From NCBI GenBank assembly GCA_013821265.1, contig JACDHD010000005.1, forward strand, positions 236-64,235: a stretch of 64,000 nt of DNA, given 5' to 3'. Made by a program: the position numbers and the translations under genes. Source of the stretch: Parachlamydiaceae bacterium. Its GTDB lineage: Bacteria; Chlamydiota; Chlamydiia; Chlamydiales; Parachlamydiaceae. The notes below the pieces were generated by a model. It ran no database searches, had not been told where the DNA came from, and saw nothing but the letters and a program-made list of their open reading frames with translations. Positions 16,411 through 23,117 of this stretch are shown here, one piece after another (positions within the stretch are counted from its first letter, which is position 1; every line of letters starts with the position of its first letter).

Positions 16411-16733
16411 TTAGGGAAGCAACATCTTCGACTATTCTACGATCGTGGTAACGTCTGGGGCTTCTCCGGCTGTTCCGATGATTTCGACGTGGTTCCGGTG
16501 GCCGATGAGGATGATTTAATGACCTTGAGCTGCGAAGCGTTTCACAGCTGAGTGTACGCGAGTTACTAAACCGCAAGTTGCATCGATTTCGATCAGCTGG
16601 CGCTGTTTTGCGTGTTCACGGACAGCTGGAGAAACACCGTGAGCTGAGTAGATTAAGCGAGCACCTACGGGAACATCTTCGAGGTCTTCAATGAAAACGG
16701 CTCCTTTGGCTTTAAGACCATCTACAACGTGGC
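16411..16733 (-). pseudogene. Duplicated internal fragment of ispH (about codons 43-150), inactivated
   Basis: Aligns base-for-base with 22667-22990 inside the intact ispH. I hand-counted roughly two dozen differences, including small indels. In the IspH frame, GHQIILIGH becomes GH-TAA (ggtcatTAAatcatc at about 16514-16528). It has no start and no 5' or 3' gene parts. Confidence 0.85.
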
Positions 16734-16735
16734 AA

Positions 16736-17043
16736 TCAATCCGAATAATCCGGATGGACTAAGTATCGACGAACTAGGATATGGGAAATACAATGACGGC
16801 TTCGATGATATGAAAAAATATGGACTGAAGCGCAGTTCAGCTTTCCATACTTGTACGATGGGGAAACAAAGGCAACTGCCAAGGCATACGGATGCCTTGC
16901 AACTCCACATATCTTCGTCTTTGATGCCAAACGTAATTTGCGCTACAAAGGGCATCACGCAATAAGGATCGAAGATCTTCCTTTCAGAGGTTTTTCTTTA
17001 GGCAAAATCCGTGGACCAAATACGGGCAGCAATTTACATTAAT
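16736..17043 (+). pseudogene. Truncated, frameshifted remnant of a thioredoxin-fold (redoxin/TlpA-like) gene
   Basis: Frame A reads ...DELGYGKYNDGFDDMKKYGLK. A frame shifted by 2 then reads QFSFPYLYDGETKATAKAYGCLATPHIFVFDAKRNLRYKG. This is the C-terminal half pattern of thioredoxin-like proteins (FPYLYD...AKAYG...TP..F.FD, recalled from memory). No CxxC-bearing N-terminus is present, and the fragment begins right at the end of the ispH duplicate. Confidence 0.5.
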
Positions 17044-17139
17044 GGCATAAATCAGAATTCTAAAAAGACGGTTAAATTACGATTACGAATGGCAAGAGTC
17101 CACCACATTAGTTGACCCTTGCCGATTACACGATTAATT

Positions 17140-17352
17140 TTAAACGTTTGTTTGTTTTAATCGTCCTGTTGTTGGACGATTAACTGGCCCAGAGCTTGAT
17201 TCACCTGAGCACATGCCGGCTAAAGCATCAGAAAATGACAGATCAACTTCTGACATTTGGTATAGGGCGTTGTTAGAGATTTGAGACATTTCTGACTCAA
17301 TCACTGTATATTCTTGCACGATCTGAATATTATTTACGGGGATCTCCAACAT
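17140..17352 (-). CDS. Candidate RiPP (azoline/TOMM) precursor peptide
   Basis: 70 aa with a strong RBS (aaaaggagaagtttATG). Divergent from the heterocyclase operon. Acidic leader containing DLSFSDALAG, then a Cys/Ser/Thr/Gly-rich tail MCSGESSSGPVNRPTTGRLKQTNV. Confidence 0.6.
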   Translation of the reverse strand: MLEIPVNNIQIVQEYTVIESEMSQISNNALYQMSEVDLSFSDALAGMCSGESSSGPVNRPTTGRLKQTNV

Positions 17353-17516
17353 AAACTTCTCCTTTTAAAAGATTTCACAACTCTTTTATGGATCAAAATG
17401 AGATATTTTTCAATATCTTCATCGAATTCAGCAATTCCTCCAAGAAAAACACATATAATTAGCTGATTAAACCATATTTCTTTGAGAGATTTTTTTTAGA
17501 AAATTGCTGAATCGAA

Positions 17517-17546
17517 TTGACATGTCCTGGACTAACTCTGTACCAT
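17517..17546 (+). promoter_or_regulatory. Candidate sigma-70-type promoter for the 17604-21551 operon
   Basis: TTGACA (17517-17522), an 18-nt spacer, then TACCAT (17541-17546), about 57 nt upstream of the ATG at 17604. The -35 overlaps one arm of the inverted repeat aattgctgaat (17502-17512, pairing with 17426-17436). Confidence 0.3.
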
Positions 17547-20139: not shown

Positions 20140-20147
20140 ATTTCACT

Positions 20148-21551
20148 ATGCCTATATTCATTAAAACGACTCCAAGGATAAGACTGAGATCTTTTAATAA
20201 AGAATCTTTAACATTTGTAATCGACGAAAATAGAACAGCGACTTTCCACGTACAAACTCAACAAGTTCTTACGAATCTATTGTCTTTTATACGTGAAGGT
20301 CAATCTTTGGAGATTTTGGAAAAGCAGGAAAAAACTGATGCATCTCTATCCAGATTGTGTTTATTCATAGAACAGTTAAAGAAAAATGGTCTGGTTGAGT
20401 ACTATTTCAATTTTAATGCTTCTGAAAACGTTGTAGTGTCTCCCAAGTCATTGAATTTTAAAAGTTCAACTTTAAGTCCAAATAATATGACGCTCAAACA
20501 ATGCCCCTATATTCTTTCTAGATTTGCTTATTTTCGAAGACAAGACGATAAAATGATGCTGGAATGTCCTTTGGCTCCTTTCCGCATTTCTTTGAATACA
20601 GCATTTTTTAATCGATTGTTACCTTATATCACTGGCGCGGAGAATTTGACAAACTATGAGTATAAGACTCTTCAAGAGGAGAAAACTTGGAGAGCTTTTA
20701 TCAGCTTATTAATCAAATATAAGGTTATTCATCCTGTTCAGGAAATTGAAACAGAAAATCTGCAATTTTGGGAATTTCATGATTTGGTCTTTCATTCAAG
20801 CAGTCGTCGGGGAGAATTTGATGATAACGTTCGCTTTGGTGCAACTTATAGATTCCAGGAAAAATTGAGCCCTCCATTGACTTTTAAGGATATAGATGTC
20901 AATAGTGCGTTTGAACTATACAAACCGAATCTTGATGAATTAGCAATTAGTGACTCGCCCTTCTCGAGGGTACTGGAAAGTCGAAGGTCTATAAGGGGTC
21001 ATAGCGATAGCAAAAAAATAACTTTGGAGAAGTTGGGCGAGTTTTTATATAGATCAATAGGCTTACGCGAAGTTGTGAAGATGCCTATACAAGATGCTAT
21101 ATTTAGGCCTTATCCTGCTGCAGGGGCTATTCACGAAATCGATTTTTATTTAGTGATAAATGTTTGTAATGGCATAGAACCCGGTGTCTACTACTATCAT
21201 CCCGTAAGGCATACATTATGTAAAAAAAATGTAGGTATGTCATATATTGAAAAAATAATTTCAAATGCAAAGTTTGGAATGGGAGTCGCTGCAACTGCTC
21301 CTCAGATTGTTTTTGTTCTTACATCGAGATTTAAGAAAATTGCTTGGAAATATGAAAAAATGTCTTATAGATGTACGTTGATTTCGATGGGGGCAATTTT
21401 CCAAACAATGTCACTTGTGGCAACGTCAATGAATCTTGCGTCTTGCATTGTGGGATCGGGAGATTCTTCTTTGTTTGCGGAAGCATTAAATATTGATTCC
21501 TTGGAAGAAGGTGCAATAGGTGAATTTACGTTAGGAGTTCCTTCCGACTAA
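20148..21551 (+). CDS. SagB/McbC-type FMN-dependent azoline dehydrogenase
   Basis: 467 aa, starting 8 nt after the heterocyclase stop. Nitroreductase-fold SagB blocks: ESRRSIRGH, RPYPAAGAIHEIDFYLVI, GVYYYHP, a Lys-Tyr motif in IAWKYEKMSYR, and CIVGSGD. There is a long N-terminal extension of about 270 aa. Confidence 0.85.
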   Translation: MPIFIKTTPRIRLRSFNKESLTFVIDENRTATFHVQTQQVLTNLLSFIREGQSLEILEKQEKTDASLSRLCLFIEQLKKNGLVEYYFNFNASENVVVSPKSLNFKSSTLSPNNMTLKQCPYILSRFAYFRRQDDKMMLECPLAPFRISLNTAFFNRLLPYITGAENLTNYEYKTLQEEKTWRAFISLLIKYKVIHPVQEIETENLQFWEFHDLVFHSSSRRGEFDDNVRFGATYRFQEKLSPPLTFKDIDVNSAFELYKPNLDELAISDSPFSRVLESRRSIRGHSDSKKITLEKLGEFLYRSIGLREVVKMPIQDAIFRPYPAAGAIHEIDFYLVINVCNGIEPGVYYYHPVRHTLCKKNVGMSYIEKIISNAKFGMGVAATAPQIVFVLTSRFKKIAWKYEKMSYRCTLISMGAIFQTMSLVATSMNLASCIVGSGDSSLFAEALNIDSLEEGAIGEFTLGVPSD

Positions 21552-22059
21552 ATCTTATTTTCTCCTAGTTTTTTACAATTATTCATCTTAACACGCATTT
21601 TGATCTAGATTATAAATATCTAGAAAAATTAAAACGCTGCTGTGACAATTGAATGTTTTAAAGGGTCAGACATGGGCCGGGCTTGGGCTGTCAAAAAGTA
21701 ACGATTTTTGACAAAAATGTTGAATCCATTTTTCTTCCAATTAAATCGAAAAAAGTTTACATATTTTGTTTTTATAAAAAATACCTTATTCTAACCAATA
21801 TGGAATCAATGAATAGTCACAACACACTTCCTACACCTCAAGAACTGATAAAACTATAGCATGGCTTATGGAGAGTCGCGATCATAGGAAAAATAAATGC
21901 TTGCAAGCAAAGCTCCAACTAAAACGTCAAACATTGGCTCTCAATAGAGCTCGTGAAGGGCGTTTTTAACTGAAAACCCTGCTTAGAACTCTAAAAGAAC
22001 AATCTACACTCATGCTGCGAAGTGATTTTGCTTCCTGTTTTTGAAAAGTACTTCTGTAT

Positions 22060-22122
22060 TTTTGCGAGCTCCTAGAGGAAAAAAACTCGAATCTGCCCCA
22101 TTATAAATCACAATCAGGGGTT
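22060..22122. repeat. 60-nt module flanking ispH (3' side)
   Basis: tatttttgcgagctcctagaggaaaaaaactcgaatctgccccattataaatcacaatcagggg is the reverse complement of 23138-23200, with a few mismatches. Confidence 0.85.
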
Positions 22123-22178
22123 TAGGGGCAGAGCCCCTTCAAAGGATAACAGCAGAAACTTCAAAAAGACTAAGAAGC

Positions 22179-23117
22179 TTAAATGACTTCGAGCGCTTTG
22201 ACAATGGGTTTAGGGAGTTGGAAGACGACATCTTCTTGAGTGAAGACGACATCTTCGACATCTTTGACACCGAATTCGACGAGGCGTTGGATGCAGCTTT
22301 GGACGATACTTTCCGGTGTTGAGGCACCCGCTGTAAGACCTATCGTCTTAATGCCGACGAGCCATTCTCCGCGGATTTCGTTTTCGTTGTTGATGAGGTA
22401 TGAGGGGATGCCGCGGCGTGAGGCCACTTCGCGGAGGCGATTGGAGTTAGAACTTTGGGGATCGCCCACAACGAGGACGAGGTCGGTTTGGTCGGTGATT
22501 TCGCGTAGGGCCATTTGGCGATTTGTGGTTGCGTAGCATATTGAGGAGCTGGGTAGAGTGGCGATGTGGGGGTATTTTGCGATTAGGGCTTCGGTGATTT
22601 CTTTGACATCATCTAGGCTTAGGGTTGTTTGTGTGATGTAGAAGAGTTTGTCTTTATCTGTGAATGTGAGGGAAGCGACATCTTCGACTGATTCTACGAT
22701 CGTGGTAACATCTGGGGCTTCTCCGGCTGTTCCGATGATTTCGACGTGGTTGCGGTGGCCGATGAGGATGATTTGATGACCTTGAGCTGCGAAACGCTTC
22801 ACAGCTGAGTGTACGCGAGTTACTAGCCCGCAGGTTGCATCGATTTCGATCAGTTGGCGCTGTTTTGCGTGTTCACGCACTGCTGGAGAGACACCGTGAG
22901 CTGAGTAGATTAATCGAGCACCTACAGGAACATCTTCGAGATCTTCAATGAAAACGGCGCCCTTAGCTTTTAAGCTATCTACAACGTGGCGGTTATGTAC
23001 GATTTCGTGTTTGACGTAGATGGGGGCTCCCCATAAAGTTAAAGCCTTTTCTACCGTTTCGATTGCTCGTTCGACGCCTGCGCAAAATCCACGTGGTTTT
23101 GATAGAAATAGTTTCAT
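22179..23117 (-). CDS. ispH: 4-hydroxy-3-methylbut-2-enyl diphosphate reductase
   Basis: 312 aa. Three cluster-ligand Cys contexts: PRGFCAGVERAI, IDATCGLVTRVH, SSICYATTNRQ. Confidence 0.95.
   Translation of the reverse strand: MKLFLSKPRGFCAGVERAIETVEKALTLWGAPIYVKHEIVHNRHVVDSLKAKGAVFIEDLEDVPVGARLIYSAHGVSPAVREHAKQRQLIEIDATCGLVTRVHSAVKRFAAQGHQIILIGHRNHVEIIGTAGEAPDVTTIVESVEDVASLTFTDKDKLFYITQTTLSLDDVKEITEALIAKYPHIATLPSSSICYATTNRQMALREITDQTDLVLVVGDPQSSNSNRLREVASRRGIPSYLINNENEIRGEWLVGIKTIGLTAGASTPESIVQSCIQRLVEFGVKDVEDVVFTQEDVVFQLPKPIVKALEVI

Follow-up and report, generated by a model that had tools for sequence, protein, structure and literature searches.

A RiPP cassette and the probable relic of a second ispH allele at the pgl-ispH junction of a Parachlamydiaceae genome

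The present study deals with the region between pgl and ispH in the genome of a Parachlamydiaceae bacterium, where a cassette for a ribosomally synthesised and post-translationally modified peptide (RiPP) lies beside the housekeeping gene ispH, together with a dead internal fragment of the same gene. The window, by which we mean the whole stretch of DNA analysed, is 64,000 nucleotides (nt) long (GCA_013821265.1, contig JACDHD010000005.1, positions 236 to 64,235 of the forward strand) and belongs to a contig of 70,386 nt. The genome was assembled from a metagenome and carries the locus tags H0X51_. Coordinates are those of the window unless a contig is named, and contigs of relatives are designated by L numbers. 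An earlier note, made from the letters of the window, had pictured the RiPP genes as an insertion bracketed by a duplicated piece of ispH. Comparison of the two ispH copies with each other, and of the locus with its relatives, points to a different history, in which the fragment would be what is left of a second working allele.

The intact ispH (4-hydroxy-3-methylbut-2-enyl diphosphate reductase) lies at 22179-23117 on the minus strand and codes for 312 amino acids (aa). The product scores 443 bits against NCBIfam NF002190 (cut-off 389), matches Pfam LYTB and retains C12, H41, H74, C96, H124, E126 and C194. An internal part of this gene occurs a second time in the same orientation, as the earlier note had seen. 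By repeat search and MAFFT alignment the left copy was placed at 16409-16733 and the right copy at 22665-22990, which is 2 nt wider than noted before, and the two dozen or so differences counted by hand turned out to be 24 substitutions and a single 1-nt deletion, at 92.3% identity. The right copy corresponds to codons 43-151 of the intact gene, in agreement with the earlier description. The left copy, like the right one on the minus strand, covers the same codons and is dead: Q115 has changed from CAA to TAA, as had been reported, and the 1-nt deletion shifts the frame at codon 143. The several small indels that had also been ascribed to it come down to this deletion, and a codon-aware alignment of both copies requires just one gap. 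S48G is the lone missense change. The longest identical run between the repeats is 41 nt (22711-22751). The similarity of the two is well above chance, and the remaining long repeats of the window are all found at 56.8-60.5 kb, inside three tandem paralogues. Between the repeats lie a redoxin remnant, the RiPP genes, 627 base pairs (bp) with no credible open reading frame (ORF) at 21552-22178, earlier put at about 630 bp, and the 3' part of ispH.

The substitutions between the copies are distributed very unevenly over the codon. Twenty fall at third positions, four at first positions and none at second positions, and two of the four first-position changes are synonymous leucine changes. If codon positions were hit equally, at least 20 third-position changes in 24 would arise with P = 6.6e-7. 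The Nei-Gojobori method applied to 106 codons gave dS 0.32, dN 0.0085 and dN/dS 0.027. For a copy decaying in place ~60% nonsynonymous changes are expected, and at most 2 of 23 were observed (P ~3e-7). Because the differences are so biased towards synonymous ones, both copies must have diverged as working genes before they came together. The fragment appears to be the relic of a second functional allele, and not a slowly decayed local copy. Judged from its substitutions, it probably evolved under purifying selection in a relative ~8% diverged and was disabled recently; it has evolved without selection over only ~5% of one lineage's part in the divergence. The earlier note had read the divergence as the age of the event, which the substitution pattern contradicts, as the divergence pre-existed. 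The codon-position spectrum can tell an old local duplicate from the relic of a second allele, and here it reverses the timing implied by percent identity. It is then very hard to maintain that a single ~6-kb insertion was bracketed by a duplication of the resident ispH made at the time of insertion, with a left copy that has long decayed. Direct repeats do flank the RiPP genes and the left copy does carry a stop codon and a frameshift, as such a history would have it; the low dN/dS and the lack of any second-position change leave it with hardly any probability.

The fragment and the resident ispH are mutually nearest, since all 57 GTDB species representatives with an alignment of at least 250 nt show at most 79% nt identity. 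The next-best ispH is 91% identical in aa and 73% in nt. No further ispH of at least 92% aa was found among 5.8 billion 90%-cluster representatives (~15 billion proteins), and a 40-mer of the fragment allele had no match in JGI metagenome contigs; GATGGTCTTAAAGCCAAAGGAGCCGTTTTCATTGAAGACC is an example of a stretch of this allele. Polarisation of the 24 differences by outgroups was tried and rejected, as third positions are saturated (27-49% identity); because this holds against every outgroup, the foreign allele is not identifiable from sequence alone.

It was considered whether the fragment could be a product of assembly, in which two co-occurring strains of ~92% identity were mis-joined and a strain-B piece of ispH ended up in a strain-A contig. 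The source is indeed a metagenome-assembled genome, and strains related at 92-95% exist in sister samples (L083). However, the sequence on both sides of the fragment is unrelated to ispH, so that a de Bruijn mis-join would lack the common k-mers it needs, and a contig of GCA_020064125.1 is 100.000% identical to window positions 12179-33117 (20.9 kb), covering the entire structure with all its junctions, although that assembly was possibly built from the same or related reads. On both grounds, the unrelated flanks and the agreement of two deposited assemblies, an artefact is highly improbable.

The position of the locus was compared with that in relatives. In ~40 of them the gene order is ispH, a Pom-family outer-membrane gene, dciA, gyrB, gyrA, tmk and holB; the window and its subclade have holB, orf227, orf239 and then ispH. 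L089, L091, L095 and L104 carry orf227 and orf239 followed by 0-4 genes and ispH, and L090 shows Pom-dciA-gyrB-gyrA-tmk-holB-orf227-orf239 on a contig that ends before ispH. In the window orf239 and orf227, lineage-specific hypothetical genes, occupy 23352-24762 on the minus strand (54% and 55.5% aa by tblastn against L091). Since these upstream neighbours of the subclade are retained, the intact ispH is the native copy in its position. On the left the backbone resumes with pgl (6-phosphogluconolactonase; 14495-15250, plus strand; Pfam Glucosamine_iso, E 5.6e-68).

An empty site, proposed earlier as a check, was found in the single relative L091, where pgl and ispH are directly adjacent. The order there is an orf227-like gene, an orf239-like gene, one extra ORF and ispH, then convergent pgl, opcA, zwf and ahcY; its pgl (3678-4439 of L091, minus strand) overlaps the ispH stop by 4 nt, and order and orientation match the window on both sides of the ispH/pgl junction. 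As ispH and pgl abut in L091, window positions 15251-22178 (6.9 kb) constitute extra DNA. From this synteny, ispH and pgl appear to have been convergent neighbours in the ancestor of the lineage. The repeats do not delimit the extra DNA, contrary to what had been supposed: the left one sits 1.16 kb inside it and not at its edge, between two other gene fragments. A duplicate made at insertion and decayed since is further contradicted by this 1.16 kb beyond the left repeat, and also by the unit common to other genomes, which is 17052-21603 and does not coincide with the stretch between the repeats.

Both flanks of ispH are rearrangement hot spots, with 0-4 genes between orf239 and ispH and with variable genes downstream. 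The gene is also flanked by a 64-nt inverted repeat, 86% complementary (22044-22107 versus 23149-23212), with a third, partial copy upstream at 23258-23291; both upstream copies pair in a hairpin-like manner and may be local elements that mediate rearrangement. A relocation of ispH by two inversions through the 64-nt repeats was rejected as an event linked to the island, because the order orf227-orf239-ispH is old, being common to L089 and L091 (ispH ~73% nt).

The RiPP cassette is of the azol(in)e or thiazole/oxazole-modified microcin (TOMM) type. It measures 4,552 bp (17052-21603) and has sharp ends in the window. The modification operon begins with a gene for a DUF6176 protein (17604-17957, plus strand; Pfam PF19673, E 3e-23). 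It is followed by a fusion of a winged-helix/E1-like leader-binding part and a YcaO cyclodehydratase (17944-20139, plus strand), which matches YcaO PF02624 (E 1.7e-76), the PF21084 DUF4423_like winged helix, TIGR03604 (223.4 bits, cut-off 219.25) and TIGR03882 (109.8 bits, cut-off 36.9). The third gene codes for a SagB-type flavin mononucleotide (FMN) dehydrogenase with a ThcOx N-terminal domain (20148-21551, plus strand; PF22767 ThcOx, PF00881 Nitroreductase; TIGR03605 E 4e-47, 159.9 bits, cut-off 78.4). A candidate precursor peptide, orf70 (17140-17352, minus strand), is transcribed divergently from this operon. It occurs in six copies of the cassette (69-89% identity) with the conserved motif YQMSEVDLSF.D.LA..CS...SSGP.NR, in which C48-S49 and S53-S54-G55-P56 are invariant. 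It matched no Pfam or NCBIfam family, and is probably the precursor. Judged from its protein families, the cassette contains the enzymes of a TOMM/azol(in)e cluster, together with a plausible precursor. The core of orf70 has few cyclisable residues (the invariant C48-S49 and S53-S54), and a minimally modified azol(in)e peptide would be expected if orf70 is the substrate.

Outside the window, at least four other contexts contain the cassette, at 72-95% identity, and ispH is found in none of them. The whole of 17052-21603 is matched in blastn at 88-92.5% by the JGI contig L082; 17052-19860 at 88-93% by L085, a 3.3-kb NCBI metagenome contig (GCA_033612695.1); 19127-21603 at 92% by the short contig L098; 17109-21555 at 90-95% by L083 (GCA_020063945.1); 17108-21535 at 77% by the 65-kb JGI contig L096; and 17172-21488 at 72% by the JGI contig L097. 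Because the homology of L082, L085 and L098 to one another continues for ~420 nt and ~280 nt past the points where their match to the window stops, the cassette ends at 17052 and 21603 are true junctions. No att-like or other repeats were found at these two ends. The distribution of the cassette suggests that it travels on its own between related chlamydial genomes. The contig of L083 (JAITZG010003222.1) is 5,750 nt long with an exact terminal overlap of 127 nt, and must therefore be either a circle or a tandem array, with a unit of 5,623 bp. Beyond the cassette it carries two ORFs of 150 and 187 aa with no family match, the first of which has a HILKRH-type motif reminiscent of toxin domains, and no evident replication or integration gene is present on it.

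The other homes of the cassette are variable regions that resemble defence islands. It adjoins an AbiE toxin-antitoxin pair in L082 (6218-7719 of that contig) and in the JGI 3300041965 contig, and in L096 a type I restriction-modification (R-M) system, GNAT genes and AbiEii (1049-8543 and 18139-19155 of L096). The cassette also decays. In L082 (9431-11626) two ORFs of 187 and 541 aa stand in place of a single YcaO gene, and in the metagenome-assembled genome JBDHQB01 (L084, 5085-5430) a lone DUF6176 remnant has an amino-acid ABC transporter on one side and a Myb-like gene on the other.

The remaining parts of the extra DNA are of mixed nature. From left to right it consists of short repeats of native style, orf191, three abutting gene scraps, the cassette and a 440-bp spacer. 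The repeats at the left end (15251-15744) are short dispersed intergenic elements whose families recur elsewhere in the window; 15277-15326 pairs with 3756-3805 and 15595-15635 with 13333-13373, and blastn copies were found at 3756-3827, 11610-11676, 13326-13408 and 5330-5391. By this likeness the left end appears to be native in style. The hypothetical gene orf191 (15745-16320, minus strand) matched no Pfam or NCBIfam family, and its 90% cluster holds this organism's two versions only; homologues in other organisms were not found. It was rejected as a part of the cassette, the 191-aa ORF adjacent to the cassette in L082 being unrelated. Its C-terminal double hydrophobic segment consists of the adjacent stretches LLFLIASAVGCVASVVFVGYF-GIP-LAILMFITSMLLASLSFGGL with a short loop in between, the bilobed pattern typical of chlamydial Inc (inclusion-membrane) proteins.

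The ispH fragment is the middle one of three scraps joined end to end. At its codon-151 end it abuts a scrap that the earlier note had not mentioned (16296-16408, plus strand), possibly the N-terminal remnant of a class I S-adenosylmethionine methyltransferase: motif I, ILEYGCGYGR, is present in its translation, Methyltransf_23 matches with E 0.08, and the N-terminus of a methyltransferase of L096 aligns at motif I with E 0.018. We tentatively read it as a methyltransferase remnant that breaks off where it meets the ispH fragment. At codon 43 the fragment abuts a Redoxin/AhpC-TSA internal remnant (16734-17051, plus strand), which is the truncated and frameshifted thioredoxin-fold remnant already recognised in the earlier note. 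It covers about residues 83-165 with at least two frameshifts, lacks both the N-terminal active-site part and the C-terminus, and reaches 25.1 bits against AhpC-TSA (cut-off 26). Its best homologues share at most 80% aa, and the few named ones are non-chlamydial; the sequence VAINPNNPDG is kept in them. The junction of ispH codon 43 with the redoxin gene falls in a common GTGGC. In L012 and L019, redoxin-like matches that lie ~8 kb downstream of ispH are just 52% identical over 42 aa. To the right of the cassette lies the AT-rich spacer (21604-22043). It contains no credible ORF and does not resemble the sequence found beyond the cassette in L082, L083 or L098; GC is 0.362 for 21604-22178. The 3' flank of ispH (22044-22178) is made up of local repeat elements, comprising the copy of the 64-nt inverted repeat at 22044-22107 and a 23-nt element at 22117-22139, inverted relative to 15232-15254 at the pgl stop, which is largely self-palindromic and hairpin-like.

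The base composition gives a divided picture. The total GC of the RiPP genes (0.316-0.383) is lowest or near-lowest against a window gene mean of 0.437 (standard deviation 0.032), as had been remarked before; the AT-rich codon choice claimed along with it does not stand out. GC at third codon positions (GC3) of the three RiPP genes has z-scores of -1.1 to -1.5, they rank 8, 19 and 44 of 52 in Karlin codon bias, and 21% of chunks of the same size equal or surpass the cassette in dinucleotide distance. By all three measures, GC3, codon usage and dinucleotides, the values fall into the range of the backbone, and composition, which had been suggested as a check for foreign origin, was rejected as proof of it. 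The outliers in codon usage are pgl and ispH themselves (ranks 1 and 3 of 52 genes; pgl GC3 0.64 versus a mean of 0.41), and because both are so rich in GC3 the local AT contrast is exaggerated. The GC of the cassette, 0.365 against 0.373 for its L082 flanks, is weakly suggestive of an origin in a lower-GC chlamydia. It should be noted here that pgl has a Karlin bias of 0.80 and a strongly C-rich coding strand, with GC skew down to -0.44, that its operon partners zwf and opcA are ordinary, and that its last codons enter a palindromic repeat element.

A vehicle for the extra DNA was also sought. Pfam and NCBIfam scans of all ORFs of at least about 40 aa in 15222-22327 gave no recombinase, integrase or transposase family, in line with the earlier observation, and no tRNA or structured-RNA integration target was found in the region. 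Two 'miRNA' matches were discarded, since they scored far below the gathering scores and had hairpin repeats behind them. Carriage by a plasmid was rejected as PLSDB has no match for 16296-22178, and carriage by a phage as the IMG/VR viral contigs hold no relative. An insertion sequence or composite transposon is not indicated either, as no transposase was found and there are no repeats at the cassette ends.

What had been proposed earlier, that acquired DNA was integrated by way of ispH homology, holds in so far as the RiPP genes lie in DNA that is absent from the L091 site and is found in several contexts, and fails in so far as the repeats are not its boundaries. Recombination through ispH homology is the most economical route to a direct partial duplicate. 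The model which we consider best, at somewhat less than an even chance, is integration within ispH of circular DNA from a ~8%-diverged relative by a single crossover, followed by deletion. A donor would carry the cassette downstream of ispH and beside a redoxin gene. If ispH codon 43 and the redoxin gene were joined illegitimately at the GTGGC microhomology, the result would be a circle, or the looped-out unit of a tandem duplication, with ispH from codon 43 to the 3' end, the spacer, the cassette and a redoxin stub as its cargo. A single homologous crossover, placed downstream of codon 151, would insert this circle into the recipient ispH, as in Campbell-type insertion-duplication, and the product would be an intact ispH, the island and then an ispH copy without its 5' end. 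A later deletion would take codons 152-312 of the second copy and the 3' part of the neighbouring methyltransferase gene. In all this we infer the donor arrangement, the circle, the position of the crossover and the order of events. The circle would account in one transfer event for the intact ispH, the copy of another allele, the codon-43/redoxin junction and the position of the cassette between the copies. Campbell integration through codons 43-151 alone was rejected, as both ispH copies would be incomplete; with a circle of such an internal fragment excluded, the circle must carry codon 43 through the ispH 3' end. Homology-facilitated illegitimate recombination of linear DNA was likewise rejected as an explanation by itself, since in it the anchor is replaced and not duplicated.

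The same geometry, with the same codon-43/redoxin junction and GTGGC microhomology, would also come from a local tandem duplication with ends in ispH codon 43 and in the redoxin gene, trimmed by deletions, if one ispH copy were later overwritten by DNA of a ~8%-diverged relative. Among the spontaneous rearrangements of bacterial genomes tandem duplications are the most frequent, the L083 contig could be a tandem repeat instead of a circle, and the synonymous pattern demands two functional alleles and no specific route. On the other hand, an independent allelic replacement over at least codons 43-151 is needed here and not with the circle, the cassette and the redoxin gene must have been resident already, and there is no close relative to reveal a recombination tract. 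We hold this course of events to be unlikely, though a serious contender.

The scraps could further be imported junk, joined beforehand in a degraded variable region of the donor, in which case no ispH homology was used and the position beside ispH is a coincidence. That three unrelated fragments abut with sharp junctions would fit this well, as would the defence-island-like homes of the cassette (AbiE, R-M), the ispH flanks that differ across the subclade and the extra DNA in which no recombinase was found. Against it, a piece of the exact neighbour gene, in direct orientation and 6 kb away, is improbable among ~2,000 genes, and the nearest sequence to the fragment anywhere is the adjacent resident ispH. 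We consider such a coincidence doubtful, a little more so than the local duplication.

Several points weigh against integration of a circle through ispH. The left copy has no codons 152-312, so that an extra deletion is needed, and orf191 and the methyltransferase scrap require a further, unobserved gain. L083, the sole circular or tandem cassette contig, carries two unrelated ORFs instead of any ispH or redoxin sequence. Neither a donor genome nor an intact gene with the fragment allele was found in the protein clusters or the JGI metagenome contigs, the saturation of third positions against outgroups prevents telling which ispH allele is foreign, and compositional signals of foreign origin are weak. 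The empty site is known from one moderately distant relative, L091 (ispH 85% aa), and downstream of ispH other members of the subclade carry different genes. The source is a metagenome assembly, and the junctions are known from assembled sequence.

The resemblance of the locus to known systems is partial. According to PMC13626634, which cites Hill et al. 1989, the cryptic prophage e14, like phage 21, lies in the icd gene of Escherichia coli and supplies a replacement end of the gene. The displaced icdC differs from icd mainly in synonymous or conservative changes, the two portions having evolved as functional alleles in separate genomes. The present locus is like e14/icd in that mobile DNA lies in or beside a housekeeping gene that remains intact, with a partial copy in direct orientation on the far side, and in that the working gene and the pseudo-fragment differ mainly synonymously. 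Unlike the island in the window, in which none were found, e14 has a site-specific integrase and att sites; its duplicate is the 3' end of the gene at the element boundary, whereas here internal codons 43-151 lie 1.16 kb inside; and its type of excision restores the gene. In the window, ispH would lose codons 152-312 if the present repeats recombined, and therefore no viable excision by way of the repeats, which the earlier note had thought of, can be expected. IspH performs the last step of the methylerythritol phosphate (MEP) pathway, the isoprenoid route assumed for chlamydiae. Given this role, such a loop-out would presumably be lethal.

Campbell-type insertion-duplication likewise leaves direct homology repeats around the inserted DNA, one of them within an intact gene, and needs no dedicated recombinase. 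A circle with the 3' part of a gene gives an intact copy and a copy without the 5' end that starts at the circle-closing junction, which would here be codon 43/redoxin. Unlike what is expected from it, the second ispH copy does not reach the stop codon and ends at codon 151 against the methyltransferase scrap. The locus behaves like a Campbell-type insertion-duplication followed by trimming, that is, a recombination scar at a variable junction.

The cassette resembles TOMM or linear azol(in)e clusters, those of the cyanobactin-type E1-like/YcaO and ThcOx included, in its fused cyclodehydratase, its SagB/ThcOx-type dehydrogenase and a small peptide with a Cys/Ser-rich C-terminus. It differs from them in an additional DUF6176 gene, in the absence of a protease or transporter from the 4.55-kb unit and in the few cyclisable core residues. 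The host of this TOMM-type cassette belongs to a chlamydial lineage of the obligate intracellular type. Chlamydial genomes contain variable regions and islands such as the plasticity zone and the 100-kb tra island of Protochlamydia. Like these, the present island is a lineage-specific gain at a junction that varies between relatives, with gene remnants present; unlike them it is small (6.9 kb) and has no conjugation or integration genes and no att-type short flanking direct repeats.

Other features of the window may be mentioned briefly. Dispersed intergenic repeats similar to repetitive extragenic palindromic (REP) sequences or miniature inverted-repeat transposable elements (MITE) occur at a density unusual for a chlamydial genome; palindromes are common among them, such as the CTCTGCGTCTCTGCG and GAGACACAGAGGCACAGAG units. 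They are found at 32835-32895, 36187-36243, 39064-39194, 45973-46123, 54859-55117 and 61822-61891, and further groups are formed by 3756-3827/11610-11676/15257-15339, by 5330-5391/13326-13408/15564-15641 and by 11239-11475/36446-36539. At 56832-61792 there are three tandem paralogues of 544, 544 and 547 aa, with DNA segments 65-88% identical, a local family expansion.

No new principle is involved in the history proposed here, as e14/icd set the pattern decades ago. The locus provides concrete and datable evidence that related environmental chlamydiae, a group of obligate intracellular bacteria for which gene gain is a matter of debate, have exchanged DNA, and it indicates that a small RiPP cassette moves among chlamydial genomes, apparently without a recombinase of its own. 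The architecture suggests a route to the fixation of an accessory cassette, namely a flanking repeat whose recombination would be lethal. It is a speculative and rather unlikely extension that environmental chlamydiae may swap small biosynthetic or defence cassettes without an integrase, a piece of a housekeeping gene serving as a homology 'address label', with trimming then locking the cassette in. If it were true, a circle with a piece of an essential gene would integrate by a single crossover into a related genome in the same host cell, and trimming of the redundant copy would fix the cassette, since any loop-out at the repeat that is left would destroy the essential gene.

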